Assembly: GCA_965229085.1 (NCBI GenBank)
Contig: OZ245859.1
Coordinates: 1,140,207 to 1,204,206 of the forward strand
Source of the DNA: Kaistia sp.
GTDB lineage: Bacteria > Pseudomonadota > Alphaproteobacteria > Rhizobiales > Kaistiaceae
Length of the DNA: 64,000 nt
Direction of reading: 5' to 3'
Of this stretch, positions 46,115 through 62,626 are shown one piece after another. Positions within the stretch are counted from its first letter, which is position 1. The number at the start of each line of letters is the position of its first letter. The notes under the pieces were generated by a model. The model made no database searches. It was not told where the DNA came from and worked only from the letters and a program-made list of their open reading frames with translations. Made by a program: the position numbers and the translations under genes.

Positions 46115-46128
46115 GGCGATGGCTCCCC

Positions 46129-47868
46129 TCAGGACAGACGCTTCTCGAACGCGTCGCCCAGCGTCACGAGGATGAGGCAGCATGAGGTGGCGCCGGCGTC
46201 CGGAACGCCGCGCGACCGCTCGCCGAGACGGCTCGCCCGGCCTACCCTGGCCACGAGATCGACGGTGCTGTCGCGTCCCTGTTCGGCCGCCAGACGCATC
46301 GCCTGCAGCGCCGCAGCGAAGCCTTGCGACTTCGTCGCGTCGAAGGCCGCCACGGCTGGCACAAGCGTATCGATCAGCGTCTTGTCGCCGACATTGGCCG
46401 AGCCGGTGCGGCGGACGCCTGCAAGGCCTGCGTTCAAAAGCGCCGAGAAGCCATCCGCGTCGACAGCGCTGTGACCTGCGATGGCAGTCGCCATCTCCTG
46501 GAACATGAAGCCGTAGAGCGGCCCCATCGATCCGCCGATTTCCGACATCAGGACGTCCGACAGCACGCTGAGCGCCTGGTCGAGGCTGAGGTCCTTGCCC
46601 TCGATCCGCTCGGCAGCGCGGCCAAACCCCTTGGCCATGTTGATCCCGTGGTCGCCATCGCCGATCAACCCATCGATTTCCGACAGATGCGCCTTGTTGG
46701 CGACGATCACCGCTGCCAGCTCGGCGACAATGGCGTGCGACCCGGCATTGCGCACCGAAGGGCCGTTGATCACCACATCAGTTGCAACGGCCGACTGTGC
46801 CCCGTGATGCGAAACCCGGGTCTTGCGCACACCGGCTTCAGCCGCATCGCCCACGGGCGCAGCAACCGTTCCGGTCGTCAAGCCCGGCGCCAGCGCCTCG
46901 AGATCGAGGAGAGCCTTCGTCTCCTCGTCGAGAGCAATAACGGTCAAGGTCGCGCCGACCATCTCCAGCGAGGTGAAGTAGTTGCCGACGAACGCCTTAT
47001 GGACACGCATTCCCCGCGCCTCGAGCCCCGTCTCGATCCGGTCATAGAGCACATAGAGTTCGTTGACCGGCGTCGCTCCGAGGCCCGAAAGGAGAACCGC
47101 GACTTCGGTCCCCGGCGCCAGACCATGATCATCCATGACAATGGCCAACATGTCGTCGGCCACAGCGTCCGCGCTCTTCAGCGCCTCAACCCGCGTGCCG
47201 GGCTCACCGTGATGGCCGATACCGACCTCCATGGTTCCCGGCGCGATCTGGAAATTCGGATGGCCAACGCCCGGCAGCGTGCAGGGACCAAGGCCGACGC
47301 CGACCGAGCGGCAGGCGTCGATCGCCTTCTGCGCCGCGGCCTTCACTTCGGCGAGCGAACCACCTTGCGCGGCCTTGGCACCGCCGATCTTCCACATGAA
47401 GATCTCGCCCGCGACGCCGCGCCTTTTGGCGCGCTCAGCGGGGGATGCGGAACAAACATCATCATTGGCAACAACGGTCGCGACCTCGATACCGTCAGCG
47501 GCGACCATCTCGGCCGCCATCTTCACGTTCATGTTGTCGCCGGCATAATTGCCATAGAGCACCGCGACGCCGGCGCCGCCATCGGCGGCCCGGATCGCAT
47601 CGGCGAAGCTCTTCGCGGTCGGCGAGGAAAACAGCTCCCCCACGGCCACGGCATCGACGAGATTGCGGCCGGTATAGCCGATGAAGGCCGGCTCATGACC
47701 CGATCCACCGCCGGTCACAATCCCGACGCGGCCCGTACGCGGCGCCGCCGTCGACACCACAACCCGCGGGTTCGTGGGGTCAAGCCGAACGAGGTCCCGG
47801 TGGGCCTTGACGAAGCCGGCTACGGTCTCGTCGACCAGATCGTCCGGATCATTGATGAACCGCTGCAT
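46129..47868 (-). CDS. Fused DhaK-DhaL ketose kinase #2
   Basis: GGGSGHEP, NYAGD, GHHGEPG; GDGDHG, GDKTLID, GRASRLG, DAGA. Confidence 0.9.
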   Translation of the reverse strand: MQRFINDPDDLVDETVAGFVKAHRDLVRLDPTNPRVVVSTAAPRTGRVGIVTGGGSGHEPAFIGYTGRNLVDAVAVGELFSSPTAKSFADAIRAADGGAGVAVLYGNYAGDNMNVKMAAEMVAADGIEVATVVANDDVCSASPAERAKRRGVAGEIFMWKIGGAKAAQGGSLAEVKAAAQKAIDACRSVGVGLGPCTLPGVGHPNFQIAPGTMEVGIGHHGEPGTRVEALKSADAVADDMLAIVMDDHGLAPGTEVAVLLSGLGATPVNELYVLYDRIETGLEARGMRVHKAFVGNYFTSLEMVGATLTVIALDEETKALLDLEALAPGLTTGTVAAPVGDAAEAGVRKTRVSHHGAQSAVATDVVINGPSVRNAGSHAIVAELAAVIVANKAHLSEIDGLIGDGDHGINMAKGFGRAAERIEGKDLSLDQALSVLSDVLMSEIGGSMGPLYGFMFQEMATAIAGHSAVDADGFSALLNAGLAGVRRTGSANVGDKTLIDTLVPAVAAFDATKSQGFAAALQAMRLAAEQGRDSTVDLVARVGRASRLGERSRGVPDAGATSCCLILVTLGDAFEKRLS

Positions 47869-48049
47869 CACCACTCCCGCAAATCAACATACCGGCAGAG
47901 CACCCAGCGCACAGTTTCAGCGCCGGAACGAGCGCATGCAGAATCTCTCCTGCCTCGCGACAGGCGCTCCAGGAAGCTGTGCCGGATGTCCTCCTCCGAC
48001 GTCGCCGACAATTTCCGCGACGCTCTGAATTATGTAATTTGCGCAGAAT

Positions 48050-48443: not shown

Positions 48444-49151
48444 TCAAGCCTTGGCGAAAACGGCGCTGCGCTTGTTGCGGAGATGCTGAAAGAGGATTTC
48501 GCTGAGCTCCGCGCCTTGGCGGCGACGCAACGCGTCGAGGATCGCCTCGTGTTCACGCATTGCCTCGCTCCAGCGATCGCGGCTGCGCGCGGAATTGGCC
48601 GAGAAGCGGGCGCGGCGCAGGCGGCCGGTCATGGCGGCATAACTGGCCTGCAGCATGCTGTTGCGCGCGGCGCGGACGATCGCCTGATGGATCATCTGGT
48701 TGAACTGGAAATAGCCGTGCATGTCGCGACGAAGGTAGCAGCCATACATCTCGTAGTGCAGCTTCTCGATCTCGACGACCTCGTCATCCGTGATGGCCTC
48801 GCAAGCCAGCCGACCGGCCAGCGATTCGAGACCGCCCATCACATCGAACAATTCCATCAGATCCTGCTCGCTCAGCGCACGCACGCGGGCGCCTCTGTTG
48901 GGCAGCAGTTCGAGCAGGCCCTCGGCAGCCAGGACCTTCAACGCCTCGCGCAAAGGGGTGCGTGAAATGCCGAGCATCTCGCAGAGCTCGCGCTCGGGGA
49001 CACGCTCGCCCTCACCGAGACTGCCCTCGACAAGGTAGTCGCGAAGCCGAGCGAGAATCTCGTCATGCAGCGAGGCCGCATTGCGCGCTGGCTCACCCTC
49101 CGGCGCCTCGTCGCTCGAACTCTGTGCAGTGGATGCTGTCGATTTAATCAT
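48444..49151 (-). CDS. GntR-family (FCD) transcriptional regulator
   Basis: ERELCEMLGISRTPLREALKVL, EHEAILDAL. Confidence 0.93.
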   Translation of the reverse strand: MIKSTASTAQSSSDEAPEGEPARNAASLHDEILARLRDYLVEGSLGEGERVPERELCEMLGISRTPLREALKVLAAEGLLELLPNRGARVRALSEQDLMELFDVMGGLESLAGRLACEAITDDEVVEIEKLHYEMYGCYLRRDMHGYFQFNQMIHQAIVRAARNSMLQASYAAMTGRLRRARFSANSARSRDRWSEAMREHEAILDALRRRQGAELSEILFQHLRNKRSAVFAKA

Positions 49152-49294
49152 GATTGCTCAATTGTATCGCATTCAATTCATTTCGTCCAACAAATACTTA
49201 AAAATTCAATGTTCTTCTTGATCCCCTAAAAAATGAATGCATTATTGCCTCCAACGCGCCGGCAGATTGACGACAAAGGTTTCGGAGACGAGTG

Positions 49295-50488
49295 ATGACA
49301 GAGCGTTCTGGGCCGCATTTCCTGCAAATTCCAGGCCCAAGCCCGGTTCCGGAACGCATATTGGCGGCCATTGGCAGCCAGGTGATTGATCATCGCGGCC
49401 CGGAATTCAAAAAGCTCGGACAGACCGTGCTTGAAGGCTGCAAAATTGCATTCAAAACCTCCGGACCGGTTATCATCTATCCATCGTCCGGAACGGGGGC
49501 GTGGGAAGCAGCCATCGTCAACACGCTGTCACCCGGCGACACCGTGCTGATGGTCGAGACCGGACATTTCGCGACGCTTTGGCACCAGATGGCGGTGCGG
49601 CTCGGCCTCGACGTTGAATTCATTCCGGGCGACTGGCGGCATGGCGTCGATGCGGCCCTGCTGGAGAGCCGGCTCGCCGAAGATCGCTCCGCGACGATCA
49701 AGGCGGTCATGGTCGTCCACAACGAAACCTCGACAGGTGTAACGAGCGATATCGCAGCCGTCCGCCGCGCGATCGACAGTGCGGGCCATCCCGCGCTGCT
49801 GATGGTCGATACGATTTCATCGCTCGGATCGGCGGACTACCGCCATGACGAGTGGGGTGTCGACGTGACGGTGAGCTGCTCCCAGAAGGGTCTGATGCTG
49901 CCGCCTGGCCTCGGCTTCAATGCGATCTCGCAGAAGGCGCTCGCCGCTTCGAAAGCCAACGGACTGCGGCGCTCTTATTGGGACTGGGAAGAGATGCTGA
50001 AGCCCAATGCCAACGGCTTCTTCCCTTATACGCCGGCGACCAACCTGCTCTATGGCCTCAAAGAGGCCTTGGCCATGCTGATGGAAGAGGGCCTCGATAA
50101 CGTCTTCGCACGGCATAAGCGTCTCGCCGCAGCCACACGGGCCGCCGTGCGGGCCTGGGGCCTCGAGATCCTCTGCCTCAACCCCGCCGAGTATTCGCCG
50201 GTCCTCACGGCAGTTCTGATGCCCGAGGGCCATGACGCCGATCGCTTCCGCGCGGTGGTGCTGGAAGAGACCAACATGTCGCTTGGCGCGGGTCTTGCCA
50301 AGTTGGCTGGCAAGGTCTTCCGGATCGGCCATCTCGGCGCCTGCAACGAGTTGATCCTGATGGGCGCGCTATCGGGAGTCGAATTGGGCCTGGCTGCAGC
50401 AGGCGTTCCCTATCGACCCGGCGGGATCGCAGCAGCGCTTGAGGAACTGAAACGCGGCGGGCCGTCGCAGGCTTCTGCCGGCGCGTGA
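49295..50488 (+). CDS. Class V PLP aminotransferase (serine/alanine-glyoxylate type)
   Basis: IPGP, SSGTGAWEAA, HNETSTG, VDTISS, SQKGLMLPPG, FRIGHLG. Confidence 0.9.
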   Translation: MTERSGPHFLQIPGPSPVPERILAAIGSQVIDHRGPEFKKLGQTVLEGCKIAFKTSGPVIIYPSSGTGAWEAAIVNTLSPGDTVLMVETGHFATLWHQMAVRLGLDVEFIPGDWRHGVDAALLESRLAEDRSATIKAVMVVHNETSTGVTSDIAAVRRAIDSAGHPALLMVDTISSLGSADYRHDEWGVDVTVSCSQKGLMLPPGLGFNAISQKALAASKANGLRRSYWDWEEMLKPNANGFFPYTPATNLLYGLKEALAMLMEEGLDNVFARHKRLAAATRAAVRAWGLEILCLNPAEYSPVLTAVLMPEGHDADRFRAVVLEETNMSLGAGLAKLAGKVFRIGHLGACNELILMGALSGVELGLAAAGVPYRPGGIAAALEELKRGGPSQASAGA

Positions 50489-50579
50489 CCGCACACGGCA
50501 CAGTGAGAGTTGAGCGTCCGGCAGGCCCATCTTCCAACGGCCACACCGGATGACGGACAAAGGCAAGGAGCGGACCAGC

Positions 50580-51659
50580 ATGCGTATCGATGCCCACAAG
50601 GTCTTGATGAACAGTCCGAGCGACGTATCGGCGCTCGACGCTATGATCGCTGCCGGCACGCTGAACCCGGCTGAAATCGTTGCCGTGATCGGCAAGACCG
50701 AAGGCAATGGCGGCGCGAACGACTTCACGCGGGGCTTTGCGACACTCTCGTTCACGCTGACGCTGGCACGGCATCTGAACATCTCCCCCGACGCTGTCGC
50801 GAAGCGCATTGCCTTTGTGTGGTCCGGCGGCACCGAAGGGGTCCTCAGCCCGCATGCGACCGTGTTCACCCGCAGCGAGGGCGCTCCCACCGGCGGCAAG
50901 CGGCTGGCGCTCGGCATTGCGCTGACGCGGGACTTCGCCGGGGAAGAGGTCGGCACCATGATCGAGGTGCTGGAAGTCGCCGACGCCGTGCGGCGCGCGC
51001 TTGCAGAGGCCGGCATCGCCTCGCCGGCCGACGTCCACTATGTGCAGGTCAAGGGGCCGCTCCTGACCCCTGCCCTCATCGCCGACGCCGACCGTCGCGG
51101 CGCGGCGGTCGTGACGCGCGACCCTAATGGCTCCAAGCCGTTTGCGCGCGGCGCGACCGCGCTCGGCGTGGCCCTGGCGCTCGGCGAGATCGAGGAGGCC
51201 GCCCTGTCCGACGGGATGATCGCCCGCGACATGAGCCTCTATTCCTCCGTCGCCAACACGTCGGCCGGGGGCGAATTGCGCAATTGCGAGATCCTGCTGT
51301 TCGGAAACTCGGCCAGCGCCGGCGGTGATCTCTCGATCGGGCATGCCGTGCTGAAGGATGTGGTGGATGCCGATGCCATCCGCCGCGCCGCGAGGAATGC
51401 CGGCGGCGAGGCGAGCGACATCGTGTCGATCTTCGCGAAGGCCGAGGCACCGCCCGGCGGCCTCTTGCGCGGCAGGCGGACGACGATGCTGTCCGATGCC
51501 GACATCAACTATGAGCGACACGCGCGCGCCGCGCTCGGCGCCGTCATCGCTTCGGTGACCGACGACAGCGCGATCTTCGTCTCCGGCGGCACGGAACACC
51601 AATGCGCGCCGGGAGAGGCGCCGATCGCCGCCATCGTGCGGATCGCATCACCGTCATGA
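50580..51659 (+). CDS. Ring-opening amidohydrolase, cyanuric acid hydrolase/barbiturase (AtzD) family
   Basis: GKTEGNGGANDFTR, SGGTEGVLSPH, VQVKGPLLT, ARGATALG, TSAGGEL, RHAR, VSGGTEHQ. Confidence 0.88.
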   Translation: MRIDAHKVLMNSPSDVSALDAMIAAGTLNPAEIVAVIGKTEGNGGANDFTRGFATLSFTLTLARHLNISPDAVAKRIAFVWSGGTEGVLSPHATVFTRSEGAPTGGKRLALGIALTRDFAGEEVGTMIEVLEVADAVRRALAEAGIASPADVHYVQVKGPLLTPALIADADRRGAAVVTRDPNGSKPFARGATALGVALALGEIEEAALSDGMIARDMSLYSSVANTSAGGELRNCEILLFGNSASAGGDLSIGHAVLKDVVDADAIRRAARNAGGEASDIVSIFAKAEAPPGGLLRGRRTTMLSDADINYERHARAALGAVIASVTDDSAIFVSGGTEHQCAPGEAPIAAIVRIASPS

Positions 51660-51750
51660 ACCCAGCCGCTCCGCGCAAGGCGGGGCGACTGCAATGCTTC
51701 TTCGGGAACAGTGAAAAGGCCCGGAAACCGGGCCATAGCAGGAGAATGAC

Positions 51751-52770
51751 ATGAGCTTGAACCGATCCCTTCCGACCGTCCGCGCGACACTCGCGGTCGC
51801 CCTCCTTCTTGGCTCCTCGGCGCTCGCCACCTCGGCCATGGCCGAGGACAAGGCAGCGATCCTGCTGCCCGGCAGCATCAACGACCAGAGCTGGAACGCG
51901 CTCGGCTATTCCATCCTGACCAGCCTCAAGTCGCATGGCTTCGAGACGGCCTATACCGAGAATGTCGCCGACGCCGATGAGGCCGAAGCGCTGCGCGGCT
52001 ATGCCAATCAGGGCTTCAAGATCGTAATGGGCCATTCCGGCCGCTTCGTCTCGGCCATGGAGCAGGTCGCGCCGGACTTTCCGCAGACCCAGTTCATCGC
52101 CGTCAGCGGCAATGAGGGCGCCCCGCCGAACGTGATGTCGGTCGACTATAACAACGCCCAGTTCGGCTGCCAGCTCGGTCTGCTCGCCGCGCGCATGAGC
52201 AAGACGCACAAGGTCGCCGGCGTCTATGGCCTCGAAGGCGTTCCCAACATCACCGCACAGGCCGGCGCCTTCCGCATCTGCGCCGCCAAGGCGGGCGCCG
52301 AAGTGACGATCCTCTATGTCAAGGACATGGAAGACGCCGCCGCATCGAAGGAAGCGGCCCTTTCGCTGATCGCAGGCGGCGCCGACGTTCTCACGGGCAA
52401 GCTCAACGCCGCCATTTCCGGCATCGTCGCTGCTGCCAAGGAAAAGAACGTCTATGTGACGGGTCGCGGTTTCGACCAGACGAAGCTCGCGCCCGACAAT
52501 GTGCTCACCAATATCGTCGAGGATTGGCCGGCGATGTTCGGCAAGACGGCTGACGATGTGAAGGCCGGCAAGCTGTTCGGGACGTTCCTGCAGTATGGCT
52601 ACGACACCGCGCCGGTGACGGGTTCGTCGCTGCTCTACGCCGAAGGCAAGCCCTTTAACCCTGTCGTTCCGGCGGCGGTGGCCAAGGAAGTCGAAGATAT
52701 GGCGGCCGCGTTCCAGTCCGGCGCGCTGAAGGTCGAGCCGACCCGCGACGACGCGCGCAGCGGCAGCTGA
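51751..52770 (+). CDS. BMP/PnrA-family ABC substrate-binding protein (nucleoside/nucleobase type)
   Basis: PGSINDQSWNA, YANQG, KVAGVYG, GADV; signal peptide. Confidence 0.88.
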   Translation: MSLNRSLPTVRATLAVALLLGSSALATSAMAEDKAAILLPGSINDQSWNALGYSILTSLKSHGFETAYTENVADADEAEALRGYANQGFKIVMGHSGRFVSAMEQVAPDFPQTQFIAVSGNEGAPPNVMSVDYNNAQFGCQLGLLAARMSKTHKVAGVYGLEGVPNITAQAGAFRICAAKAGAEVTILYVKDMEDAAASKEAALSLIAGGADVLTGKLNAAISGIVAAAKEKNVYVTGRGFDQTKLAPDNVLTNIVEDWPAMFGKTADDVKAGKLFGTFLQYGYDTAPVTGSSLLYAEGKPFNPVVPAAVAKEVEDMAAAFQSGALKVEPTRDDARSGS

Positions 52771-52915
52771 GCCGTCGCGCTCAGGCTATCAAGCACCCTC
52801 GGCCGGGGACACTTTCTCCGGCCGATTGTCCCGCGGGGCCATCCCCCGGGAGCCTGGCATGGGAGCTCCTTTCGGAGCCCCAGCCCCACGACAAGCCTGC
52901 GACGGAGATGCACGC

Positions 52916-54406
52916 GTGGCACCCCTTTTGGAAATGCGCGGGATCGTGCGCTCGTTCGGCGAGGTCCGGGCGAACGACAATATCGATCTCACCGTGCATT
53001 CCGGCGAAATCCTCGGGCTTCTGGGCGAGAACGGCTCTGGCAAGAGCACCTTGATGAAGATCCTCTACGGCATGTTGCCGCCGGATTCCGGCGACATCCG
53101 CTTCCGGGGTCTCCCGCTTGCCGCCCATACGCCCGCGGCCGCGATCGCCGCCGGCATCGCCATGATCCACCAGCACTTCATGCTGGTCGAAGCGATGACC
53201 GTGACCGAGAATATCCTGCTCGGCTGGCCTGGCGCGGGCCAGTTGCTGAAACCGAAGGCAATGGCGGCTCATATCCGCGAGGCCAGCCAGCGCTTCGGCC
53301 TCGATCTGGATCCCGACGTGCGGATCTCGAGCTTGCCGCTCGGGCGCCGCCAGCGGGTCGAAATCCTGAAGGCGATCCTGCGCAATGCCGAGCTGCTGAT
53401 CCTGGACGAGCCAACCTCCAACCTCGCCCCGGTCGAGGTGCGCGAACTGCTCGATATCATGCGGCGCCTTCGGCTCGAGGGTAAAGGCATCGTCTTCATC
53501 AGCCACAAGCTGCCGGAAGTGCTCGACGTCTGTGACCGCGTCGTCGTGCTGCGGGCCGGCAAGCTCGCCGGCGCCGCCGCCGTTGCCGATGTCGGCCGCG
53601 AGCAACTGGCGGAAATGATGGTCGGCCGCAGCGTGCCGATGCCGCGCGTCGTCGTGGATGACCAGCCGCGCGGCCCGCTGCTCCTCAGCGTGCGCGGCAT
53701 GCAGGCCCAAGGTCTCACCCCGCTGACATTCGATCTGCGCGGCGGGGAGATCCTGGGCATTGCGGGCGTCGACGGCAACGGACAGCTTGAGCTGGCCGAA
53801 GCGTTGGCAGGCCTCAGACCCATCGATGCCGGCGTCGTCATGATCGGCAACGCGGACGCGACGCTGAGCAAGGTCGCCGATCGCGTCCGGATGGGCATGG
53901 CCTATCTGCCGGCCGACCGGTCGCACACCGCGCTCGTCAAATCGATGTCGGTGCAGGACAATCTGATGCTGCGCGACAGCAACCGCGCACCCTACGGCAA
54001 CACGGTGCACCTGACCCCGCGCGAAGGCCATGTCAGGGCCCGCGCGCTGATGACGCAATTCGACGTGCGCGCGCCGGACCCGGACTTTCTCGTCGGCAAG
54101 CTCTCGGGCGGCAACCAGCAGAAGATCGTCATCGCCCGCGAGCTCGACCGCAAGCCGAGCGTGGTCGTCGCACACCAATCGACCTGGGGCCTCGATCCCG
54201 GCGCGACCCGCTTCGTGCTCGACCAGATGCTGGCTCTGCGCCAGCAAGGGGCGGCCATTCTCTACATATCCTCGGAGCTGGAGGAGATCCTCTCGATCAG
54301 CGACCGAATCGCCGTGATGGCGGGCGGCGGCTTCGCGGGCTTCATCCCCAATCGCAATGTTGACCTTCGGCAAATCGGCCTCTGGATGTCCGGGAGACAC
54401 GAATGA
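52916..54406 (+). CDS. ABC ATPase of nucleoside (NupA/YufO-like) transporter (GTG start)
   Basis: RANDNID, GENGSGKST, MIHQHFML, DEPT, SGGNQQK. Confidence 0.9.
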   Translation: MAPLLEMRGIVRSFGEVRANDNIDLTVHSGEILGLLGENGSGKSTLMKILYGMLPPDSGDIRFRGLPLAAHTPAAAIAAGIAMIHQHFMLVEAMTVTENILLGWPGAGQLLKPKAMAAHIREASQRFGLDLDPDVRISSLPLGRRQRVEILKAILRNAELLILDEPTSNLAPVEVRELLDIMRRLRLEGKGIVFISHKLPEVLDVCDRVVVLRAGKLAGAAAVADVGREQLAEMMVGRSVPMPRVVVDDQPRGPLLLSVRGMQAQGLTPLTFDLRGGEILGIAGVDGNGQLELAEALAGLRPIDAGVVMIGNADATLSKVADRVRMGMAYLPADRSHTALVKSMSVQDNLMLRDSNRAPYGNTVHLTPREGHVRARALMTQFDVRAPDPDFLVGKLSGGNQQKIVIARELDRKPSVVVAHQSTWGLDPGATRFVLDQMLALRQQGAAILYISSELEEILSISDRIAVMAGGGFAGFIPNRNVDLRQIGLWMSGRHE

Positions 54407-55458
54407 GCGACACATCCAAGGCCGCGACGCCAGGTCGGCCGCTGCGGATCACGCTCAGCGGGCATGGGCTCGGCGTCGACATTGCGCTGGCACTGCTTCT
54501 GTCGATCATCTGCGCGGCAATCCTGATCGCCCTCGCCGGCCATAGCCCGCTGGCCGGCTTCCTCGCCATCCTGCAAGGCGCCTTTGGCGATGCCCATCAG
54601 ATCGGCGCCTCGCTCAATCGGTCGACGCCCTATCTTTTGTCTGGTGTCGGTGTGGCGCTCTGCTTCCGGGCCGGAATCATCAATCTCGGCGCGGAAGGCC
54701 AGATTGCACTGGGCGGAGCCGGGGCGGCGGCGATGGCGCTGGCCTTTCCCGGCGCGCCGGCGATCATTGCGATTCCCCTGTCGCTCGCGGCGGGCGCGCT
54801 GGCCGGCGCCGCATGGTCCGGCGTCGCCACCGTCATCCACCTCAAGCGGCGGGTGCACGAGGTTCTGGCGACGCTGCTCCTGAACTTCATCGCGGTCCTG
54901 CTGGTGCAGCAATTGCTGGCCGGTCCGCTTGGCCAGTTCGGTGCGGGCTTCCTTCAATCACCGCTGATGCCCCATCCAGCATGGCTGCCCAAGGCCCCGA
55001 ATTTCGACGCCCATATCGGCATTCTGATCGCCGTCGCCGCCGCCGCCGCCGCGTCCTTCCTGATCTGGCGCACCCCCTTCGGCTTCGCGTTGCGGGTCGC
55101 GGGTTCCTCGCGCCTCGCCGCGACCTATGCCGGCTTCTCGCTCGATCGCCTCACATGGGGCGCGATGCTGCTGGCCGGCGCACTGGCTGGCCTTGCCGGC
55201 GGCGTCGAGGTGCTCGGCATTCATCGGCGCCTTATCGAAGGGTTTTCGCTCGGTTTCGGCTTCAAGGCGGTGACGGTCGCGCTGCTTGGCGCGACGGAGC
55301 CTCTGGCGATCATCCCGGCCGCGCTGTTCATCGGTTTTCTGGAAACCGGCTCGCTCGCGATGCAGCGTCAGATTGGCGTGCCAACAGCGCTCGTCACAGT
55401 GATGGAGGGGCTGACCATGGTCTTTGTTCTGGTCGCAATGTCGGGACGACGCACATGA
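54403..55458 (+). CDS. Nucleoside-type ABC permease (NupB-like)
   Basis: FRAGIINLGAEGQ, EVLATLLLNF, GFKAVTVALLG. Confidence 0.9.
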   Translation: MSDTSKAATPGRPLRITLSGHGLGVDIALALLLSIICAAILIALAGHSPLAGFLAILQGAFGDAHQIGASLNRSTPYLLSGVGVALCFRAGIINLGAEGQIALGGAGAAAMALAFPGAPAIIAIPLSLAAGALAGAAWSGVATVIHLKRRVHEVLATLLLNFIAVLLVQQLLAGPLGQFGAGFLQSPLMPHPAWLPKAPNFDAHIGILIAVAAAAAASFLIWRTPFGFALRVAGSSRLAATYAGFSLDRLTWGAMLLAGALAGLAGGVEVLGIHRRLIEGFSLGFGFKAVTVALLGATEPLAIIPAALFIGFLETGSLAMQRQIGVPTALVTVMEGLTMVFVLVAMSGRRT

Positions 55459-56369
55459 TCGAATTTCTCGCGGCAGCCATCCGCATTGCGACGCCGATCC
55501 TCCTGGCGGGCCTTGGCGGCATTCTTTCGGAACGAGCCGGCGTGTTCGCCGTTGGGCTCGAGGGCATGATGCTGCTCGGCGCGTTCGGTGCGACCATCGG
55601 GACATGGATCGGCGGCAGTTCGCCGCTCGGCCTCGTCTTCGCGTTGATTGGCGGCGCGGCCATGGGTCTGGTCGTTGCCATCGTCGCGGTGCGCTTTCGC
55701 GCCGACAACATGGTGACCGGCCTCGCGGCCAATATCGTTGCCATGGGGCTGACCAGCTATCTGCTGCGGATCATCGCCTCATCGGGCAAGCCGGTGGCGA
55801 TCCAGAACGAATTGCTGCCGGTGTGGCCGGTTCCCGGGCTCTCCGAACTTCCCGGCGTCGGTCCGCTGCTGTTCACGCATCCTCCCCTGACCTATCTCAC
55901 CATCATCCTCTGCATCGCCTTCACCTTCCTGCTCAACCGGACGCAGATAGGCCTGACGCTCCGCGCAACCGGCGAGAATCCGGAGGTCGTCTATGCCTCG
56001 GGCGTCAATCCGCTCAAGATCCGGATGCTGGCGGTGGTCGCGTGCGGCGCTGTGGCCGGTCTCGGAGGCGCCGTGTTGTCGATGCAGCAGGTTGGAACCT
56101 TCACGGACGGCATGACGAGCGGCCGCGGTTATCTGGCGCTTGCGGCGCTTATCGTCGGCCGCTGGACGCCCTGGGGCACGGCGGCTGCCTGCCTGGTCTT
56201 TGGCGCGGCCGAGGCGTTCGAGCTTCGCCTGCAAGGCTTCGGTATTCCAATCAGTTCGTATGTGATGCAAATGGTGCCCTATCTCATCGGCATCGGCGTT
56301 CTCGCCAGTCTCGGCCGGAATGCGCGCCTGCCGGCCGCAATCGGCAAGCCGCTTTCCCGCAATAGCTGA
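55455..56369 (+). CDS. Nucleoside-type ABC permease (NupC-like)
   Basis: SERAGVFAVGLEG, LRATGENP, GRGYLALAALIVGRW. Confidence 0.9.
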   Translation: MIEFLAAAIRIATPILLAGLGGILSERAGVFAVGLEGMMLLGAFGATIGTWIGGSSPLGLVFALIGGAAMGLVVAIVAVRFRADNMVTGLAANIVAMGLTSYLLRIIASSGKPVAIQNELLPVWPVPGLSELPGVGPLLFTHPPLTYLTIILCIAFTFLLNRTQIGLTLRATGENPEVVYASGVNPLKIRMLAVVACGAVAGLGGAVLSMQQVGTFTDGMTSGRGYLALAALIVGRWTPWGTAAACLVFGAAEAFELRLQGFGIPISSYVMQMVPYLIGIGVLASLGRNARLPAAIGKPLSRNS

Positions 56370-56378
56370 GGCGATCCG

Positions 56379-57731
56379 ATGCCCCTCTCCATCACCGACC
56401 TCGCCAAGGCCCTTGCGAGCGGAGCCGTTACGGCCGAGCGAGTGCTCGACGATTGCCTTACGGCCATCGCAGACCGCGACGGCGCGCTGAACAGCTTTGT
56501 TCATGTCGATCAGGCCGGTGCCCGCGCCGCCGCCCGCGCCAGCGACGAACGCCGCGCCGCCGGAGCCTTGCTCTCGCCGCTCGACGGCATCCCGCTTTCG
56601 GTCAAGGACAACCTCCTGGTCGAAGGAATGCCGGCGACATGGGGCAGCCGTGCCTTCGCTGACTTCGTCCCAGCGGGCGACGAGTTGCCGGTGGCGCGCC
56701 TGCGCGCAGCGGGCGCGGTGCTGGTCGGAAAAACCAATGTCCCCGAGCTGACGCTTGAGGGGTATACGCGCAACGAGCTGTTCGGCGTCACGCGCAACCC
56801 GTTCGACGCAAGACTGACGCCGGGCGGCTCATCAGGCGGCGCGGCGGCCAGCGTTGCGGCGGGATTTGTGCCGGCGGCCATCGGCACCGATGGCGGCGGC
56901 TCGATCCGGCGGCCGGCCTGTCACACCGGCCTGGTCGGCTGGAAGCCCTCCATCGGTCATATTCCCCGGCGCGACGGCTTTCCGGCCATCCTCACGGACT
57001 TCGAGACCATCGGAACGCTGACGACAACAGTCGGCGACGCGATGCTGATGGACGCTGTCCTTTCCGGCCCCGACAATGGCGACCGTCATTCGCTGCCGCC
57101 GCCAACGACACCGCGCCTGCCGACGCCCGCCCGTATTCTCTTTATTCCGCGCTTCGGCACCGCGCCGGTCGATCCCGAAGTCGCTGCCACGACCAGTGCT
57201 TTCGCCGACCAACTCGCAAGCCTCGGCCACCACGTCGAGCGCGGCGAGGTCTTTTTCGATCTCGACAGCTTCGCCAGCATCTGGCGCGTGGTGTCGCGTT
57301 CCGGCGTCGCCTGGCTGATGCGACAGCCGCAATGGAACCTTCGCGAACTGGCAGGCGCGTCAGTTCAGGCCATGGCCGAGGACGGCTATACGATCAGCGG
57401 TGCCGACTATTTCGAAGCGCTCGACCGGGTGACGGCCCTCCGCCGACACTGCGACGCGCTCTTGTCGCGCTACGACTATGTGCTGACACCGACCGCCGCC
57501 GCCCTGCCCTGGCCGGCCGAAAATCCCTATCCCGATATCATCGACGGCCGCGCCGCCGGTCCGCGCGATCACGCTGTTTTCACCGGCTGGGTCAACGCCG
57601 CGGGACTGCCTGCCATCAGCCTGCCGGCGGGTCAGTCGGCCAGCGGAATGCCGATCGGCGTGCAACTCGTCGGCGGATTCGGCCATGACCGCGACCTCCT
57701 CGCCTTCGCGCGAGACCTCTCTGGCATCTGA
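56379..57731 (+). CDS. Amidase-signature family amidase
   Basis: GIPLSVKDN (Lys), GGSSGG (cis-Ser), GTDGGGSIRRPA (Ser nucleophile). Confidence 0.92.
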   Translation: MPLSITDLAKALASGAVTAERVLDDCLTAIADRDGALNSFVHVDQAGARAAARASDERRAAGALLSPLDGIPLSVKDNLLVEGMPATWGSRAFADFVPAGDELPVARLRAAGAVLVGKTNVPELTLEGYTRNELFGVTRNPFDARLTPGGSSGGAAASVAAGFVPAAIGTDGGGSIRRPACHTGLVGWKPSIGHIPRRDGFPAILTDFETIGTLTTTVGDAMLMDAVLSGPDNGDRHSLPPPTTPRLPTPARILFIPRFGTAPVDPEVAATTSAFADQLASLGHHVERGEVFFDLDSFASIWRVVSRSGVAWLMRQPQWNLRELAGASVQAMAEDGYTISGADYFEALDRVTALRRHCDALLSRYDYVLTPTAAALPWPAENPYPDIIDGRAAGPRDHAVFTGWVNAAGLPAISLPAGQSASGMPIGVQLVGGFGHDRDLLAFARDLSGI

Positions 57732-57754
57732 TTCGTTCTGAAGGCTTGAACACC

Positions 57755-58519
57755 ATGCTGCCTGACGTCATTCGCGAAGCTGCCCTGTTGCTGGCCGAAG
57801 CGCGCCGAACCGGCGTTCCGCTGGACCGCCTGCCGGATCACGCCATCCCCGCCGATGCAGAGGACGCCTTCGCGATCCAGCAGGCGATTTCCCGGCTGGC
57901 GGATGACGATGCCGTCGGCTTCAAAGCGGCGCTCAATGCGCAATTCGGTGTGCTCTATGCTGGCCTGCTGCGCTCGCGGGTCCACCCAGACCAGGCGGTG
58001 ATCGCATCCGAAGGCATGACGATGATCGGCGTCGAAGCCGAGATCGCTTTCCGCTTCGACCGTGACGTGCCGCCACGCGCCGAAGCCTATGCACCCGAGG
58101 AGATCGCGGCCCTCGTCTCGGCGCTCCCTGCCATCGAGACGCTCGATACGCGCTTCCGCGATTTCGACGGAACATCGGTGATCGCCAAGGCGGCGGACTT
58201 CATGTCGAACGGCTGCTTTGTCGCCGGCAGTCCCCGAAGCGACTGGCGGAGCCTCGACCTCTCGGCCATCGAGGTCATACTGCGCATCGACGGCGTGGAG
58301 AGGGTGCGCCATCGCGGCGGCCATCCAAGCGTCGATCCGTTGCTGCCGGCCATCGCCCTTGCCAACCGCCTGCGCCTGACCAACGGGATTGCGGCCGGGA
58401 CGATCGTCACCACCGGGACCTATACCGGGACGATCTTCGTCGCGCGCGACAGCCTTATCGAGGTCACCTTCGCTGGCCTCGGCAGCGTTTCCTGCCGGTT
58501 TGCCGCGAACGCGCCCTAG
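57755..58519 (+). CDS. FAH-superfamily protein, 2-keto-4-pentenoate hydratase / 4-oxalocrotonate decarboxylase-like
   Basis: GFK, VEAEIAFRF, IETLDTRF, AD, GTIVTTGTYTG. Confidence 0.8.
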   Translation: MLPDVIREAALLLAEARRTGVPLDRLPDHAIPADAEDAFAIQQAISRLADDDAVGFKAALNAQFGVLYAGLLRSRVHPDQAVIASEGMTMIGVEAEIAFRFDRDVPPRAEAYAPEEIAALVSALPAIETLDTRFRDFDGTSVIAKAADFMSNGCFVAGSPRSDWRSLDLSAIEVILRIDGVERVRHRGGHPSVDPLLPAIALANRLRLTNGIAAGTIVTTGTYTGTIFVARDSLIEVTFAGLGSVSCRFAANAP

Positions 58520-58566: not shown

Positions 58567-59472
58567 TCAACCGCTGATCTGGCTTACGAAGTCCAAAAAG
58601 GCGCGCACCCGACAGGGGCAGAGATGGCGTGACGGATAATAGGCATGGAGCGGGAGGCGCTCCTCGTTCCATTGCGGAAACAACTCGATGAGGCGACCAT
58701 CCGCCAGCATCGCATCAGTCCCGAGCGCCATCGGTTGGGCAATGCCGAGGCCGGCGATGCAAGCGGAAAGCGAGGTGGCGACATCGTTCAAGACAAGACG
58801 GCCGTTGACCTCAACGGGGAGAACGTCTCCGTCACGGTGAAATTCCCATTTGAATGGGCGGCCAGTCGTCGGATCGCGGAAGAGCAGGCACTGGTGCCGG
58901 CCATCGGCCAGTTCGGCGGGATGATCCGGTCGACCGTAGCGCTCCAGATAGGAGGGAGATGCACATGTCAGAATGCGTGTCTCCGCAAGCTTGCGTGTCA
59001 CGAGGCCGGAGGCGTCCGGCTCTCCGAACCGGATGGCGACATCAAAGCCTTCTGAGACCAGATCGCCGACGCTGTCGCGCACGACGAGATCGAGCGACAG
59101 GTTCGGATGCGCATCGAGAAAAGGTTGAAGGCGCGGCGCCAGCATAAGACTCGCAAACCAACCGTCGCAATTGACGCGCAGCCGGCCATAGACGAGTTGA
59201 TCGCCGGCGACGGCACTGCTGGCGGCTTCCGAAATGCCAACGAGCAGCGGCGCGACATCGGTGAACAGAGACCGTCCGCTCTCCGTCAGCACAGTGGATC
59301 GGGCATTGCGTTCGAACAGCCGTATACCGAGCCGCTCTTCCAGCCGCGCGATCGAGCGGCTGACGCCAGACGGCGTCAATCCCAACGCCTCGGCGGCGCG
59401 CACGAAATTGCCGGTCTCCACCACCGCGATGAAGGTGCCGATACCGCTCAACAGGCGCGAGTCGATGTTCAT
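58567..59472 (-). CDS. LysR-family regulator (CrgA/DmlR-like)
   Basis: NFVRAAEALGLTPSGVSRSIARLEERLG, DLVSEGFDVAIRFG. Confidence 0.93.
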   Translation of the reverse strand: MNIDSRLLSGIGTFIAVVETGNFVRAAEALGLTPSGVSRSIARLEERLGIRLFERNARSTVLTESGRSLFTDVAPLLVGISEAASSAVAGDQLVYGRLRVNCDGWFASLMLAPRLQPFLDAHPNLSLDLVVRDSVGDLVSEGFDVAIRFGEPDASGLVTRKLAETRILTCASPSYLERYGRPDHPAELADGRHQCLLFRDPTTGRPFKWEFHRDGDVLPVEVNGRLVLNDVATSLSACIAGLGIAQPMALGTDAMLADGRLIELFPQWNEERLPLHAYYPSRHLCPCRVRAFLDFVSQISG

Positions 59473-59579
59473 CGATGAATCCTTGTCACTCAATAGGTGA
59501 CGAGGATGCGTTTGAATCACGCTTTGTCCAGACGGTAATTCTGGGTCCGACAAATCCGCGTCGAACTCAGGAGCCCATC

Positions 59580-60363: not shown

Positions 60364-60440
<77 letters not shown>

Positions 60441-60487: not shown

Positions 60488-60516
60488 CATATAGGCGCTG
60501 GGCCGCCGCGTTGGAA
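60488..60516 (-). promoter_or_regulatory. Putative sigma70 promoter of tRNA copy 2
   Basis: TTCCAA(60516-60511)-17 bp-TATATG(60493-60488). Confidence 0.45.
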
Positions 60517-60564
60517 GCCCGGCCGGGACGAATTCTCAATTCGTCCACAGGCTGGACGCCCGCC

Positions 60565-62346
60565 TCAGACGGTCGGATTGATCCGGATGCCGAGTTCGCG
60601 CAGTTGGCGTGTGCTCGCCTCGCTGGGGGCGTTCATCAGAAGGTCCTGAGCCTGCTGGTTCATCGGGAACAGCGTGATCTCGCGCAGGTTCTGCACGCCG
60701 CAGATCAGCATCACGATGCGGTCGATGCCCGGCGCCATGCCGCCATGCGGCGGTGCGCCATACTGGAAGGCGCGGTAGAGGCCGCCAAAACGCTCCTCGA
60801 CCGTCGTCTCGTCGAGCCCGACCAGACCGAACGCCTTCACCATCAGCTCCGGGATGTGATTGCGGATGCCGCCCGAGGCGATCTCGAAGCCGTTGCAGAC
60901 GAGATCATACTGATAGGCCTTGATCGTCAGCGGATCCTGATTTTCCAGCGCCTCGAGGCCGCCCTGCGGCATCGAGAACGGGTTGTGGGCGAAGTCGACC
61001 TTCTTCTCTTCCTCGCTCCATTCGTAGAACGGGAAATCGACGATCCAGGCGAGCTCGAAGCTGTTGGTATCGACAAGGCCGAGCTCGGTGCCGACGCGCG
61101 TCCGCGCATCGCCGGCAAAGCGGTAGAAGCTCTTCGGATCGCCCGCGACGAAGAAGACGGCATCGCCATCTTCGAGGCCAAGCTGCACGCGCAGCGCCTC
61201 GGTGCGGTCTTCGCCGATATTCTTCGCGACCGGACCTGCGCCTTCGAGCGCTCCGTTCTCGCTGCGCCAGAAGATATAGCCGAGACCCGGCTGACCCTGC
61301 TGCTGCGCCCAGGCGTTCATACGGTCGCAGAAAGCGCGCGAACCGCCGCCCTTGGCCGGGATCGCCCAGACTTCGGCCTTTGGATCGGCCTCGATCATGC
61401 GGGCGAACACCTTGAAGCCCGAGCCGGCGAAATGCTGCGTCACCGCCTGCATCTCGATCGGGTTGCGCAGGTCCGGCTTGTCGGAACCATAGGTGCGGAT
61501 CGCCGTGTCATAGGGGATGCGGCGGAAGGTTTCCGTGACGCTCTTGCCATCAGCGAATTCCTGGAACAGGCCGCGCATCACCGGCTCCATCGTGCCGAGA
61601 ATGTCGTCCTGCGTCACGAAGCTCATTTCGAGGTCGAGCTGGTAGAACTCGCCCGGAAGGCGGTCAGCGCGCGGGTCCTCGTCGCGGAAACAGGGCGCGA
61701 TCTGGAAATAGCGGTCGAAGCCGGCGACCATCAGCAGCTGCTTGTACTGCTGCGGCGCCTGCGGCAGGGCGTAGAACTTGCCGTTATGGATGCGCGAGGG
61801 CACGAGGAAATCGCGCGCGCCTTCGGGCGACGACGCGGTCAGGATCGGCGTCGAGAACTCGGTGAAACCGATCTCGGTCATGCGGCGGCGCATCGAGGCG
61901 ATGACCTGCGTGCGCTTCATGATGTTGGCATGCAGCGTCTCGCGGCGGAGATCGAGGAAGCGGTATTTGAGGCGCGTGTCCTCGGGATAATCGGGCTCGC
62001 CGAAGACCGGGAGCGGCAGCTCCTTGGCCGCCGAGAGCACCTCGATCTCGCTTGCGAACACCTCGACCGCGCCGGTGGCGAGGTTGGCGTTCACGGTCTC
62101 GGGGGTGCGCTTCTTCACCAGCCCGTCGATGCGCACGCACCATTCCGAGCGCAGCTGCTCCGCCGTGCGGAAGGCCGGGGAATCCGGATCGACGACGATC
62201 TGGGTCAGCCCGTAGTGATCGCGAAGGTCGATGAACAGCAGCCCGCCATGATCGCGCACCCGATGGACCCAGCCCGAAAGGCGAACGGTCTCGCCCGTCT
62301 GGGTTTCGCGGAGCTGGCCGCAGGTATGGGTGCGATAGCGATGCAT
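60565..62346 (-). CDS. aspS: Aspartate--tRNA(Asp/Asn) ligase
   Basis: [15 protein letters not shown] (His typical of non-discriminating type), [26 protein letters not shown]. Confidence 0.97.
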
Positions 62347-62626
62347 GATGATCGATCCGAATTCGGGACAGCGCGGCAGAAAACGGGCCGTCGCGCATGG
62401 GATTTGCAGCGAAGGCCAGAGCCCGCCGCACGCGCGCGGGAGAAGCGCATGCGTGTCTTTTGTTGTCAAGCAAGTCCGGGCCGACCCGAGGCACCCGGCT
62501 CGTTCGGGCGGGACCGGCGCGGCCCGCGGCGCAAAGTCCCATGAAAACGGCAGGACGGAGAGCCCCTATCGGCCAAGACCACGCTATTCTCTCGCGCGAT
62601 CATGCTCTGTTTCCGGGGGGAAATTC

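Follow-up and report, generated by a model that had tools for sequence, protein, structure and literature searches.

The window analysed here, a stretch of 64,000 nucleotides from a Kaistia sp. contig, carries at positions 48444-58519 a regulator gene and, divergent from it, eight enzyme and transporter genes that share one orientation. The GntR/FCD-family transcriptional regulator lies on the minus strand (48444-49151). On the plus strand follow a class V aminotransferase of the serine/aspartate-glyoxylate aminotransferase group (49295-50488), an AtzD-family ring-opening amidohydrolase, here AtzD2 (50580-51659; PF09663, 466.7 bits), a BMP/PnrA-family periplasmic substrate-binding protein (51751-52770; PF02608, 120.2 bits), an ABC ATPase with two nucleotide-binding domains (52826-54406; PF00005 in two stretches, 156.6 bits), ABC permease 1 of the BPD_transp_2 type (54403-55458; PF02653, 137.7 bits), ABC permease 2 (55455-56369), an amidase-signature enzyme (56379-57731; PF01425, 322.3 bits) and a MhpD/4-oxalocrotonate-decarboxylase-like metal enzyme of the FAH family (57755-58519; PF01557, 29.7 bits). 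All the genes that the initial annotation had named were therefore found in the arrangement it described. Permease 2 was assigned in a corrected frame from its identity to orthologues (304 aa; 73% identity with a PF02653 permease in locus L060); the ORF at 55424-56365, considered for this role, was rejected as lying in the wrong frame, with no Pfam or NCBIfam match and no similarity to the orthologues. NCBIfam alignments of the ATPase started only at residue 34 and its orthologues measured 495-496 aa; the true start is probably near 52916. The permease 1 start overlapped the ATPase stop by 4 nt and an ATGA overlap linked permease 1 to permease 2. With gaps of -4 to 91 bp across the locus and ATGA overlaps at two junctions, the genes are consistent with a single operon, which ended at the FAH-like gene, the LysR gene at 58567-59553 being convergent and outside the conserved set.

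The regulator matched both of its Pfam domains (FCD 85.1 bits, GntR 60.4 bits). Orthologues with 71-80% identity were equally divergent in L004, L006, L009, L010, L012 and L048, and L060 also had a GntR/FCD gene at the divergent position, while an IclR regulator took its place in other cluster arrangements. The AT-rich region between the regulator and the aminotransferase (49152-49294), read directly, contained repeated ATTCAAT/ATTCATT words, a palindromic core (AATGCATT), inverted repeats at 49169-49178 and 49231-49240, and one promoter-like site on the minus strand (49189-49161). These features suggest a divergent promoter with a candidate operator.

AtzD2 (P0001, 359 aa) shared 44% identity with the canonical cyanuric acid hydrolase of the same genome and about 55% with the genuine enzyme from Moorella. 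Phylogenetically it fell in a widespread clade with support of 1.00, outside the one group that contains the canonical hydrolases together with Moorella 6bum and P0144, a barbiturase-like protein. The proposal of a distinct AtzD-family clade of unknown substrate was thus upheld, since the clade is separate from the characterised cyanuric acid hydrolases and barbiturases; to our knowledge, none of its members has been assayed. The clade is marked by the signature GNGGAND, VKGP, (F/Y)ARGA, (Y/F)ERHAR and SGGTEHQCxPGEAP, and retains all three Ser-Lys-Arg sets. The position named as the specificity determinant by Peat et al. 2013 (PMC3758960) was Glu in 44 of 44 clade members; all 18 canonical hydrolases carried Thr there, and barbiturase carries His. 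The diagnostic cyanuric-acid-hydrolase motif SGGxExQGPxGGGP (PMC9118981) was found in none of the 44. Beyond this Glu, 17 further residues were clade-specific (18 were listed, one merely the start Met) and mostly flanked the catalytic motifs. Several of them fell in the SGG and metal-loop segment of domain 3, which in the Moorella structure (PMC6557486) adjoins C5 of the bound barbiturate, and the residues around the pocket were smaller in this clade.

A complete canonical cyanurate locus was present 2.7 Mb away in the same genome. Its cyanuric acid hydrolase scored 547.7 bits on NF052395, with Azorhizobium 4nq3 (450 bits) as the best solved relative, and its BiuH reached 414 bits against a cut-off of 370. 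The locus further encodes a formamidase-like and a BiuH-like protein, an additional amidase and a BMP ABC system. The canonical partners thus sit elsewhere, beside a second, canonical hydrolase. The refuting test that the initial annotation had set, an efficient cyanuric acid hydrolase with biuH/atzEF elsewhere, therefore turns out to favour a separate function for AtzD2, which is not the cyanuric acid hydrolase of this genome. One could still regard AtzD2 as a second cyanuric acid hydrolase isozyme, with the amidase acting on carboxybiuret, biuret or allophanate and the aminotransferase and FAH-like genes as passengers: AtzD2 passes the NCBI equivalog NF052395 (437.7, cut-off 360), its best solved relatives are all cyanuric acid hydrolases, its three Ser, Lys and Arg are all conserved, the amidase is distantly similar to AtzE and AtzF, and a Burkholderiales module holds only the importer, hydrolase, amidase, IclR and a porin. 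We consider this improbable, given the complete canonical cluster, the absence of the diagnostic motif and the specificity Thr from the whole clade, a locus without AtzH or AtzF and without space for an AtzG-like small ORF, an aminotransferase kept through three independent rearrangements, and an FAH-like subclade that was found, among the places checked, only in AtzD2 clusters.

We compared the neighbourhoods of about 48 AtzD2 loci (about 50 genomes). The neighbours were conserved with the hydrolase, as had been predicted, with the amidase linkage surviving rearrangement: a related amidase (46-75% identity) was found in 40 of the approximately 48 loci. The Kaistia amidase keeps the Lys and Ser-Ser motifs in the alignment, shared 29% identity with the canonical-cluster amidase and scored below every NCBIfam cut-off (AtzE, 198.5 versus 425.75; allophanate hydrolase, 186.7 versus 511). 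The earlier statement that no known partner is recognisable was too strong: AtzE, AtzF and this amidase are members of one superfamily, although the amidase does stay below the cut-offs of those two families. Aminotransferase orthologues (61-84% identity) adjoined AtzD2 in 21 of the approximately 48 loci, in three gene orders. About half of the clade loci lacked this gene and most lacked the FAH-like gene, indicating that both are accessory to a hydrolase-amidase core. In other lineages, oxygenases of three families adjoined the hydrolase-amidase pair (two RutA copies in L019, a FAD monooxygenase with weak HpxO similarity and an FMO-like protein), consistent with an oxidised heterocycle as the shared intermediate.

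The importer also varied by lineage: its place was taken by a BMP ABC system, by an ECF system whose S component belongs to the YkoE family (PF09819) or by an ABC system of the NMT1 type. BMP orthologues (76-89% identity) followed AtzD2 in the group A loci. The Kaistia BMP protein, only 24% identical to that of the canonical cyanurate cluster, had AtzT of the atrazine plasmid (6pi5, 85.3 bits) as its best solved relative. The nucleoside type proposed earlier for the importer is at most putative.

Both accessory enzymes were encoded by single-copy genes. The aminotransferase, with an SQK motif carrying the PLP lysine, reached 454 bits against NCBIfam BhcA (cut-off 650); its best solved relative was the Arabidopsis serine-glyoxylate aminotransferase 6pk1 (361.7 bits), and it scored 137 bits to PucG and 96.8 bits to ureidoglycine aminotransferase. 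The FAH-like protein (71.9 bits to DmpH, cut-off 350) retained three metal-binding Glu (VEAEI, AIE) and had Gly at the site of an Asp in MhpD and NahK. Only 373 relatives were retrieved at E<=1e-10 in a word-limited search. Those of 51-55% identity whose surroundings were fetched lay within AtzD2 clusters (3 of 3), six more apparently shared a source assembly with an AtzD2 protein, and relatives of 47% identity adjoined an HpcH/HpaI aldolase and TRAP transporters. The FAH-like protein thus looks to belong to a small, cluster-dedicated subclade, and the aminotransferase looks dedicated too.

The ring opener followed by an amidase parallels barbiturase followed by ureidomalonase (PMC3758960), and a proteobacterial version of the oxidative pyrimidine pathway could be imagined, in which AtzD2 is a barbiturase and the amidase a ureidomalonase releasing urea and malonate. 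The RutA copies adjoining the cluster in L019 and the monooxygenases beside others would suit it. So would the alternative importers, since we take the YkoE-family S component and the NMT1/THI5-like binding protein to represent pyrimidine-precursor transporter families. However, AtzD2 lies outside the barbiturase clade and lacks the barbiturase signature (Asn, His, Lys, Val, Ser), keeping Arg, Arg, Gly and Gly; a transaminase and a 2-oxo-acid enzyme are superfluous for malonate; and no uracil dehydrogenase was seen in AtzD2 clusters. We judge this pathway very improbable.

Other oxidised rings of the purine or pyrimidine kind, for example oxonate (5-azaorotate), orotate or ureides of the allantoin or parabanate type, are unlikely substrates, if somewhat easier to accommodate. 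The aminotransferase might then be PucG/HpxJ-like, acting on ureidoglycine/oxalurate, or use aspartate/oxaloacetate, the amidase might resemble oxalurate or allantoate amidohydrolase, and the FAH-like protein might be a ureidoglycolate lyase or oxaloacetate decarboxylase. FAH-family oxaloacetate decarboxylases and an FAH-type ureidoglycolate lyase have been described, which favours such roles, as does the aspartate-glyoxylate enzyme BhcA being the best family match of the aminotransferase. Moreover, known ureide pathways pair class V aminotransferases with amidase-family enzymes (PMC12625717), and the cyanurate/biuret genes, present in this genome, act on urate-oxidation products (PMC7948467). 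Against this, the aminotransferase is far nearer to serine-glyoxylate aminotransferase than to PucG or ureidoglycine aminotransferase, the intact three-fold Arg/Ser/Lys site is a better match for a six-membered 2,4,6-trioxo ring than for hydantoins or rings with a carboxyl group, and elsewhere the genome encodes a canonical HIU hydrolase as well as the large subunit of a xanthine dehydrogenase.

With middling confidence, we favour a regulated operon for the uptake and breakdown of a cyclic ureide, a cyclic amide rich in nitrogen; cyanuric and barbituric acid are both improbable as this compound. The BMP-type ABC system would import the ring compound and AtzD2, a serine-lysine hydrolase, would open it, the three-fold Ser/Lys/Arg site being retained for a 2,4,6-trioxo-type ring in a remodelled pocket. 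The amidase-signature enzyme would split the resulting acyl-urea to urea or ammonia; a urease-type motif is present in the genome. In the subclade that includes the Kaistia window, and there only, the leftover carbon skeleton may pass into an alpha-amino/alpha-keto acid pair: the glyoxylate-type aminotransferase would yield a keto acid, or aminate one, which the metal-dependent MhpD-like enzyme would then decarboxylate, hydrate or tautomerise. Cyanurate gives only CO2 and NH3 and leaves no carbon skeleton for a transaminase, so the conserved transaminase and 2-oxo-acid enzyme argue for a ring with carbon outside the ureido carbonyls. Together with the invariant Glu and the smaller pocket residues, this makes the suggested ring with an amino- or keto-bearing carbon reasonable, although the carbon-skeleton argument is valid for the subclade only, as many loci lack both genes. 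On the other hand, the full Arg triad, absent in barbiturase, favours a symmetric triazine over a pyrimidine. Our leading guess, a tentative one, is a C5-functionalised barbiturate (5-amino, 5-hydroxy or 5-oxo: uramil, dialurate, alloxan), whose breakdown would run through aminomalonate or ketomalonate to CO2 and either glycine or glyoxylate; we know of no mechanistic precedent for FAH-family decarboxylation of ketomalonate (alpha-keto-malonate). The legume glycosides proposed earlier as a source of isouramil-derived compounds are a poor match for carriers that come from soil metagenomes, the Verrucomicrobiota and the marine genera Roseibium and Oricola.

Among known systems, AtzD2 shares the Toblerone fold with AtzD, TrzD and the Moorella and Azorhizobium cyanuric acid hydrolases (EC 3.5.2.15; 4bvq, 5t13, 6bum and 4nq3, 284-378 bits), as well as the three Ser-Lys dyads, three Arg, the Gly-Gly after the third Ser and the metal-ligating Glu. 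It differs in the metal loop (QCxPGEAP versus QGPxGGGP) and, next to catalytic residues, by Cys to Gly twice, Val to Ala and Met to Trp. Unlike those hydrolases it is linked to an aminotransferase and an FAH-like enzyme, whereas biuH, trtB and atzEGHF are not linked to it, such genes going with the canonical paralogue. The barbiturase-ureidomalonase system of Rhodococcus erythropolis (5hwe) follows the same logic, a ring opener of this family and then a urea-freeing amidase, and the AtzD2 substrate is likewise probably a carbon-containing trioxo ring; however, AtzD2 scores only 277 bits to barbiturase, its phylogenetic position differs, and the aminotransferase and FAH-like steps are extra. 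The atzDGEHF operon of Pseudomonas sp. ADP (carboxybiuret route) also joins a ring opener and an amidase-signature enzyme, and AtzT, from the same plasmid, resembles the binding protein described here, but in our locus the amidase is under the AtzE cut-off and AtzG, AtzH and AtzF are absent. The aminotransferase resembles Arabidopsis AGT1 (6pk1) and BhcA by its scores and has the PLP lysine motif, although it is below the BhcA cut-off and set in a ring-catabolic operon, unlike the aminotransferases of the serine or beta-hydroxyaspartate cycles. Finally, the FAH-like protein shares the fold family, the three metal-binding Glu and a similar length with MhpD, NahK and HpcG, while its scores stay low (about 50 bits against these structures, about 70 bits against their NCBIfam models), and its gene stands outside their aromatic meta-cleavage context.

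The gene set assigned to the operon in the initial annotation was present, as ORF listing and profile searches revealed. Beyond a divergent GntR/FCD regulator gene (48444-49151, minus strand), eight genes were co-oriented on the plus strand with an intergenic spacing of -4 to 91 bp. The first two encoded a class V aminotransferase (49295-50488) and a ring-opening amidohydrolase of the AtzD/TrzD family, hereafter AtzD2 (50580-51659; PF09663, 466.7 bits, E=6.4e-140). Genes for a BMP-family binding protein (51751-52770; PF02608), a double ABC ATPase (52826-54406) and a pair of BPD_transp_2 permeases followed, and the last two genes specified an enzyme with the amidase signature (56379-57731; PF01425, 322.3 bits) and a weak-scoring FAH-like protein resembling MhpD/4-oxalocrotonate decarboxylase (57755-58519). 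The importer, composed of the PF02608 binding protein, the double ATPase and the two permeases, was thus of the BMP/PnrA ABC type. The second permease gene had been listed as an ORF at 55424-56365, which proved to be a wrong-frame artefact with neither a family match nor similarity to orthologues; the true gene occupied 55455-56369, its start overlapped the first permease by ATGA and its product was 73% identical to the PF02653 permease of a related locus (L060). A convergent LysR gene (58567-59553) lay outside the conserved unit. The 143-bp divergent gap between the GntR and aminotransferase genes was AT-rich; at 49160-49245 it carried repeats of the words ATTCAAT/ATTCATT as well as a palindromic core, AATGCATT, and this region is a candidate GntR operator. 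A scan of the window and five related loci for RNA elements, riboswitches among them, found none that would name the ligand; its sole matches were a fluoride riboswitch in L056, far downstream of the cluster there, and a tRNA gene of the window (60367-60440, minus strand; Rfam 59 bits), just 3' of an SDR gene. Two long ORFs close to this tRNA, at 60511-62544 (plus strand) and 60565-62469 (minus strand), had no family match. Directly upstream of the GntR gene, the window carried dihydroxyacetone-kinase genes (43395-47874, minus strand; fused Dak1-Dak2 at 46129-47874), none of which was seen in the related loci examined.

AtzD2 belonged to the AtzD/TrzD/barbiturase Toblerone-fold family (TIGR02714, 438.2 bits) and exceeded the cut-off of the NCBIfam equivalog NF052395 (437.7 vs 360 bits). 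It kept the three Ser-Lys dyads (GKTEG/SGGTEG, VKGP/TSAGGE and AKAEA/SGGTEHQ) and the Arg residues that separate cyanuric acid hydrolases from barbiturase (AtzD R194 and R324; FTR, FARG and RHAR). The C-terminal motif S-G-G-x-E-x-Q-G-P-x-G-G-G-P, described as diagnostic of cyanuric acid hydrolases by Wackett's group (PMC9118981), was found in none of the 44 members of the AtzD2 clade, AtzD2 itself having SGGTEHQCAPGEAP. The specificity signature of cyanuric acid hydrolases (Arg195, Thr321, Arg325, Gly345 and Gly346; Peat 2013, PMC3758960) also failed, as AtzD2 presented Arg, Glu, Arg, Gly and Gly. The position of AtzD Thr321, equivalent to barbiturase His324, has been named a specificity determinant (Peat et al., PMC3758960); it was Glu in 44/44 clade members and Thr in 18/18 canonical sequences, and the Glu signature of AtzD2 was unlike that of any of the six groups in PMC3758960. 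The barbiturase signature (Asn195, His321, Lys325, Val345 and Ser/Ala346) and placement in the barbiturase clade both failed: AtzD2 showed FARG, ERHAR and SGGTEHQ and branched elsewhere, while a barbiturase-like protein included in the tree (P0144, 685 bits to barbiturase 5hwe) showed LSNG, HRQIK and SVSAAHQ. The AtzD2 clade as a whole retained the three Ser-Lys dyads and all three Arg, the second of which is Asn in barbiturase. That the operon constitutes a proteobacterial barbiturase route thus appeared very unlikely.

A tree was built from full-length representatives at 50% identity, 47 genome-locus sequences, the second AtzD-family copy of the Kaistia genome, Moorella 6bum and P0144. AtzD2 and its relatives formed one clade (support 1.00) outside the group that held all canonical hydrolases and barbiturase, in a midpoint-rooted tree whose root is uncertain. 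The clade is large, ranging over Alphaproteobacteria, Burkholderiales, Verrucomicrobiota and Chloroflexi. The best 120 protein clusters in the public collection were all at least 75% identical to AtzD2, with sources including Ancalomicrobiaceae, Azospirillaceae, Roseiarcus, Bauldia and Segnochrobactrum, and clade members were named 'cyanuric acid amidohydrolase' or 'ring-opening amidohydrolase' there. At 19 positions, a residue conserved in at least 95% of the clade was rare in canonical sequences; one of these positions was just the start Met, and the other 18 mostly flanked the catalytic motifs. From canonical to clade sequences, the changes were GNG[C>G][V>A]ND, [M>W]SGGTEG, VK[C>G]P, [S>A]RGA, SAG[V>G]E, [T>E]RHAR and SGG[A>T]EHQ[G>C]xPG[G>E]AP. 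Structures of the Moorella enzyme show ligand contacts by the Gly45 carbonyl and the Ser347-Gly348 strand, with the C5 carbon of bound barbiturate lying beside Gly348 (PMC6557486); it is this domain-3 neighbourhood that was rewritten in AtzD2. Metal binding may have persisted, given that the metal-ligating Glu (AKAEA) was retained and that backbone carbonyls supply most of the remaining ligands. From these substitutions we infer that the catalytic machinery was conserved and the specificity changed. A roomier pocket with a new carboxylate would suit a hydrogen-bond donor or a cationic substituent on a ring atom.

A search of the 4.76-Mb genome revealed the second AtzD-family gene at 3.94 Mb, 2.7 Mb away from AtzD2, in a cluster of its own (L003, C1:3930001-3950000). 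Its product scored 547.7 bits on NF052395, carried the motifs GNGNVND, IKCP, TRHAR and SGGAEHQGPDGGGP, and was nearest to the crystallised Azorhizobium enzyme (450 bits). Around this canonical hydrolase were a BMP binding protein, permeases, an ABC ATPase, another amidase, BiuH (414 bits vs a cut-off of 370) and a BiuH-like protein (258 bits), possibly triuret-hydrolase-like, a neighbourhood that matched the published 'via biuret' route of cyanurate. The cluster also encoded a formamidase-like protein of the nitrilase family (563 bits), for which we know of no role in the published cyanurate pathway. Identities between the two clusters were 44% for the hydrolases, 29% for the amidases and 24% for the BMP proteins. 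The initial annotation had regarded an efficient cyanuric acid hydrolase with biuH or atzEF elsewhere as adverse to its proposal. BiuH was indeed encoded elsewhere but was paired with its own hydrolase, which argues for a different job of AtzD2. Linkage to biuH/trtB or atzEG(H)F was absent from the window operon and from 50 related loci. That AtzD2 is a second cyanurate isozyme, as its equivalog score and retained Arg residues could suggest, is therefore improbable.

To characterise the neighbourhood of the AtzD2 clade, we compared 50 loci from species-representative genomes by tblastn and added further loci with called genes. Since simple ORF calling dropped genes in the lower-GC loci, the synteny counts rest on tblastn and called genes. 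The expected conservation of neighbours with the hydrolase was borne out for the amidase, a relative of which (46-75% identity) was found in 40 of about 48 loci, either adjacent or with transporter genes between. It held only in part for the aminotransferase (61-84% identity), present in 21 loci, and many clade members, including Rhizobium and Allorhizobium loci, lacked both this gene and the FAH-like gene nearby. A Burkholderiales module, for example, comprised importer, AtzD2, amidase, IclR and porin. The core thus consists of the hydrolase-amidase pair, to which the aminotransferase and FAH-like genes are accessory. The aminotransferase occurred in three arrangements. In the first, GntR was divergent from aminotransferase, AtzD2, ABC importer and amidase, and in the second, IclR was divergent from AtzD2, ABC importer, amidase and aminotransferase, both followed by the FAH-like gene where the locus showed it. 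In the third, GntR was divergent from aminotransferase, ECF importer and AtzD2, with a second AtzD paralogue and an amidase on the opposite strand. Importer and regulator are replaceable between loci: a BMP ABC importer was present in most of them, an ECF system (PF09819 YkoE-family S component, fused double ATPase and CbiQ-family T component) in four Rhizobium/Bradyrhizobium loci and, in Roseibium and Oricola, an ABC importer whose binding protein was NMT1/THI5-like, while the regulator was GntR in some loci and IclR in others. Oxygenases adjoined the core in some lineages, namely two RutA copies, an FAD monooxygenase weakly similar to HpxO and an FMO-like protein. The RutA (pyrimidine monooxygenase) pair, tandem paralogues both above the equivalog cut-off, directly followed the AtzD2-ABC-amidase unit of a Rhizobiales isolate (L019:17668-19936). 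Two different non-canonical AtzD paralogues per cluster were observed in Rhizobium and Bradyrhizobium (L024, L027, L029 and L033) and likewise in Oricola and Roseibium (L036, L038 and L040); one was AtzD2 and the other had a (Q)RHIR signature and ended in ...GPDGGGL. These clusters carried an amidase, and the marine genera added an FAD monooxygenase with weak HpxO similarity.

The window amidase had the Lys, cis-Ser and Ser motifs of the amidase signature (SVKDN, GGSSGG and GGSIRRPA). It fell below the cut-offs for both AtzE, the 1-carboxybiuret hydrolase (TIGR02715, 198.5 vs 425.75), and AtzF, the allophanate hydrolase (TIGR02713, 186.7 vs 511). A small AtzG-like ORF or AtzH inside the operon was discarded, as a small partner gene of the AtzG type would not fit into intergenic gaps that never exceed 91 bp. 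The aminotransferase and the FAH-like gene were each single-copy in the Kaistia genome. BhcA was the top-scoring family for the aminotransferase, below its cut-off (NF045640, 454.1 vs 650 bits), and the protein reached 361.7 bits to serine-glyoxylate aminotransferase and only 137 bits to PucG. Given this proximity to serine-glyoxylate aminotransferase and BhcA and the distance from PucG, glyoxylate/glycine is a likely co-substrate pair. A PucG-like aminotransferase belongs to a reading in which the operon would serve other oxidised purine or pyrimidine rings, such as oxonate, orotate or allantoin-type ureides, and to which we give a low probability. The FAH-like protein scored below the equivalog cut-offs of the MhpD/4-oxalocrotonate decarboxylase group (71.9 vs 350.55 and 68.4 vs 350 bits). 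Its metal-binding Glu triad (VEAEI, AIE) aligned with MhpD and NahK, whereas in the FG.L.AD segment it had Gly in place of the Asp of MhpD and NahK, as judged from two aligned structures. Its family was small (373 relatives at E<=1e-10 in a word-limited search). Among relatives of 51-55% identity, the three whose surroundings were fetched all sat in AtzD2 clusters, and for six further relatives the longest source contig equalled in size that of an AtzD2 protein. Relatives of 47% identity adjoined HpcH/HpaI aldolase, 2-hydroxyacid dehydrogenase and TRAP transporters, neighbours that point to 2-oxo-acid chemistry. Such relatives at L054:10001-10762 and L055:10001-10753 lay in a conserved cluster that also encoded dienelactone hydrolase and SnoaL-like proteins, with Dak1 and Dak2 genes next in L055.

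The most economical reading of the operon is a four-step scheme. A planar N-heterocycle would be imported, the best solved relative of the binding protein being AtzT of the atrazine plasmid; AtzD2 would open the ring; the amidase would cleave the acyl-urea left by ring opening; and, in the subclade of the window, the carbon skeleton would be processed via an alpha-amino/alpha-keto acid pair. Motif or tblastn scans of the genome for urease, allophanate hydrolase and allantoin genes found a urease alpha-subunit motif encoded elsewhere. The presence of a conserved transaminase and a 2-oxo-acid enzyme argues for additional carbon in the ring, because cyanurate breakdown yields only CO2 and NH3. 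Of the 2,4,6-trioxo rings, a C5-amino barbiturate alone would directly give an alpha-amino acid (aminomalonate); C5-oxo and C5-hydroxy barbiturates would give ketomalonate or tartronate. Our guess for the substrate is such a C5-functionalised barbiturate, in agreement with the idea of the initial annotation. To our knowledge, FAH-type decarboxylation of ketomalonate has no precedent, and an alternative with known chemistry would be an aspartate-dependent amination pulled by oxaloacetate decarboxylation. We tentatively propose, at a rather low probability, that the AtzD2 clade hydrolyses uramil (5-aminobarbiturate) or close C5-oxidised barbiturates and that the operon is a new pyrimidine-catabolic branch. 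Uramil and these barbiturates could stem from urate oxidation, or from 5,6-diaminouracil-type overflow and damage products that riboflavin and purine metabolism generate. There was no need to invoke AtzD2 as an alternative 5-hydroxyisourate (HIU) hydrolase, since a purine-catabolic region of the genome (C1:508000-518000) encodes a canonical transthyretin-type HIU hydrolase (ending YRGS), together with the large subunit of xanthine dehydrogenase and a third ABC importer of the BMP type.

If uramil were the substrate, the operon would encode three undescribed activities, namely uramil ring opening, an aminomalonate:glyoxylate aminotransferase and a metal-dependent ketomalonate or oxaloacetate decarboxylase, and the end products of the new pyrimidine branch would be urea, glycine and CO2. 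In the literature searched, we found nothing on the AtzD2 clade or its operon, although a clade member may already have been assayed, and nothing on how bacteria degrade uramil, dialurate or alloxan. If the substrate of AtzD2 differs from cyanurate, surveys that take such genes as a measure of cyanurate or s-triazine degradation potential overestimate it, and a route common in soil, by which a nitrogen-rich ring compound is scavenged, would so far have gone undescribed. With its conserved partners, the clade offers a candidate pathway concrete enough to be tested, and carriers in culture are available for genetics. Altogether, in a conserved operon for which we found no prior description, a known fold and a known chemistry are probably applied to a new substrate.
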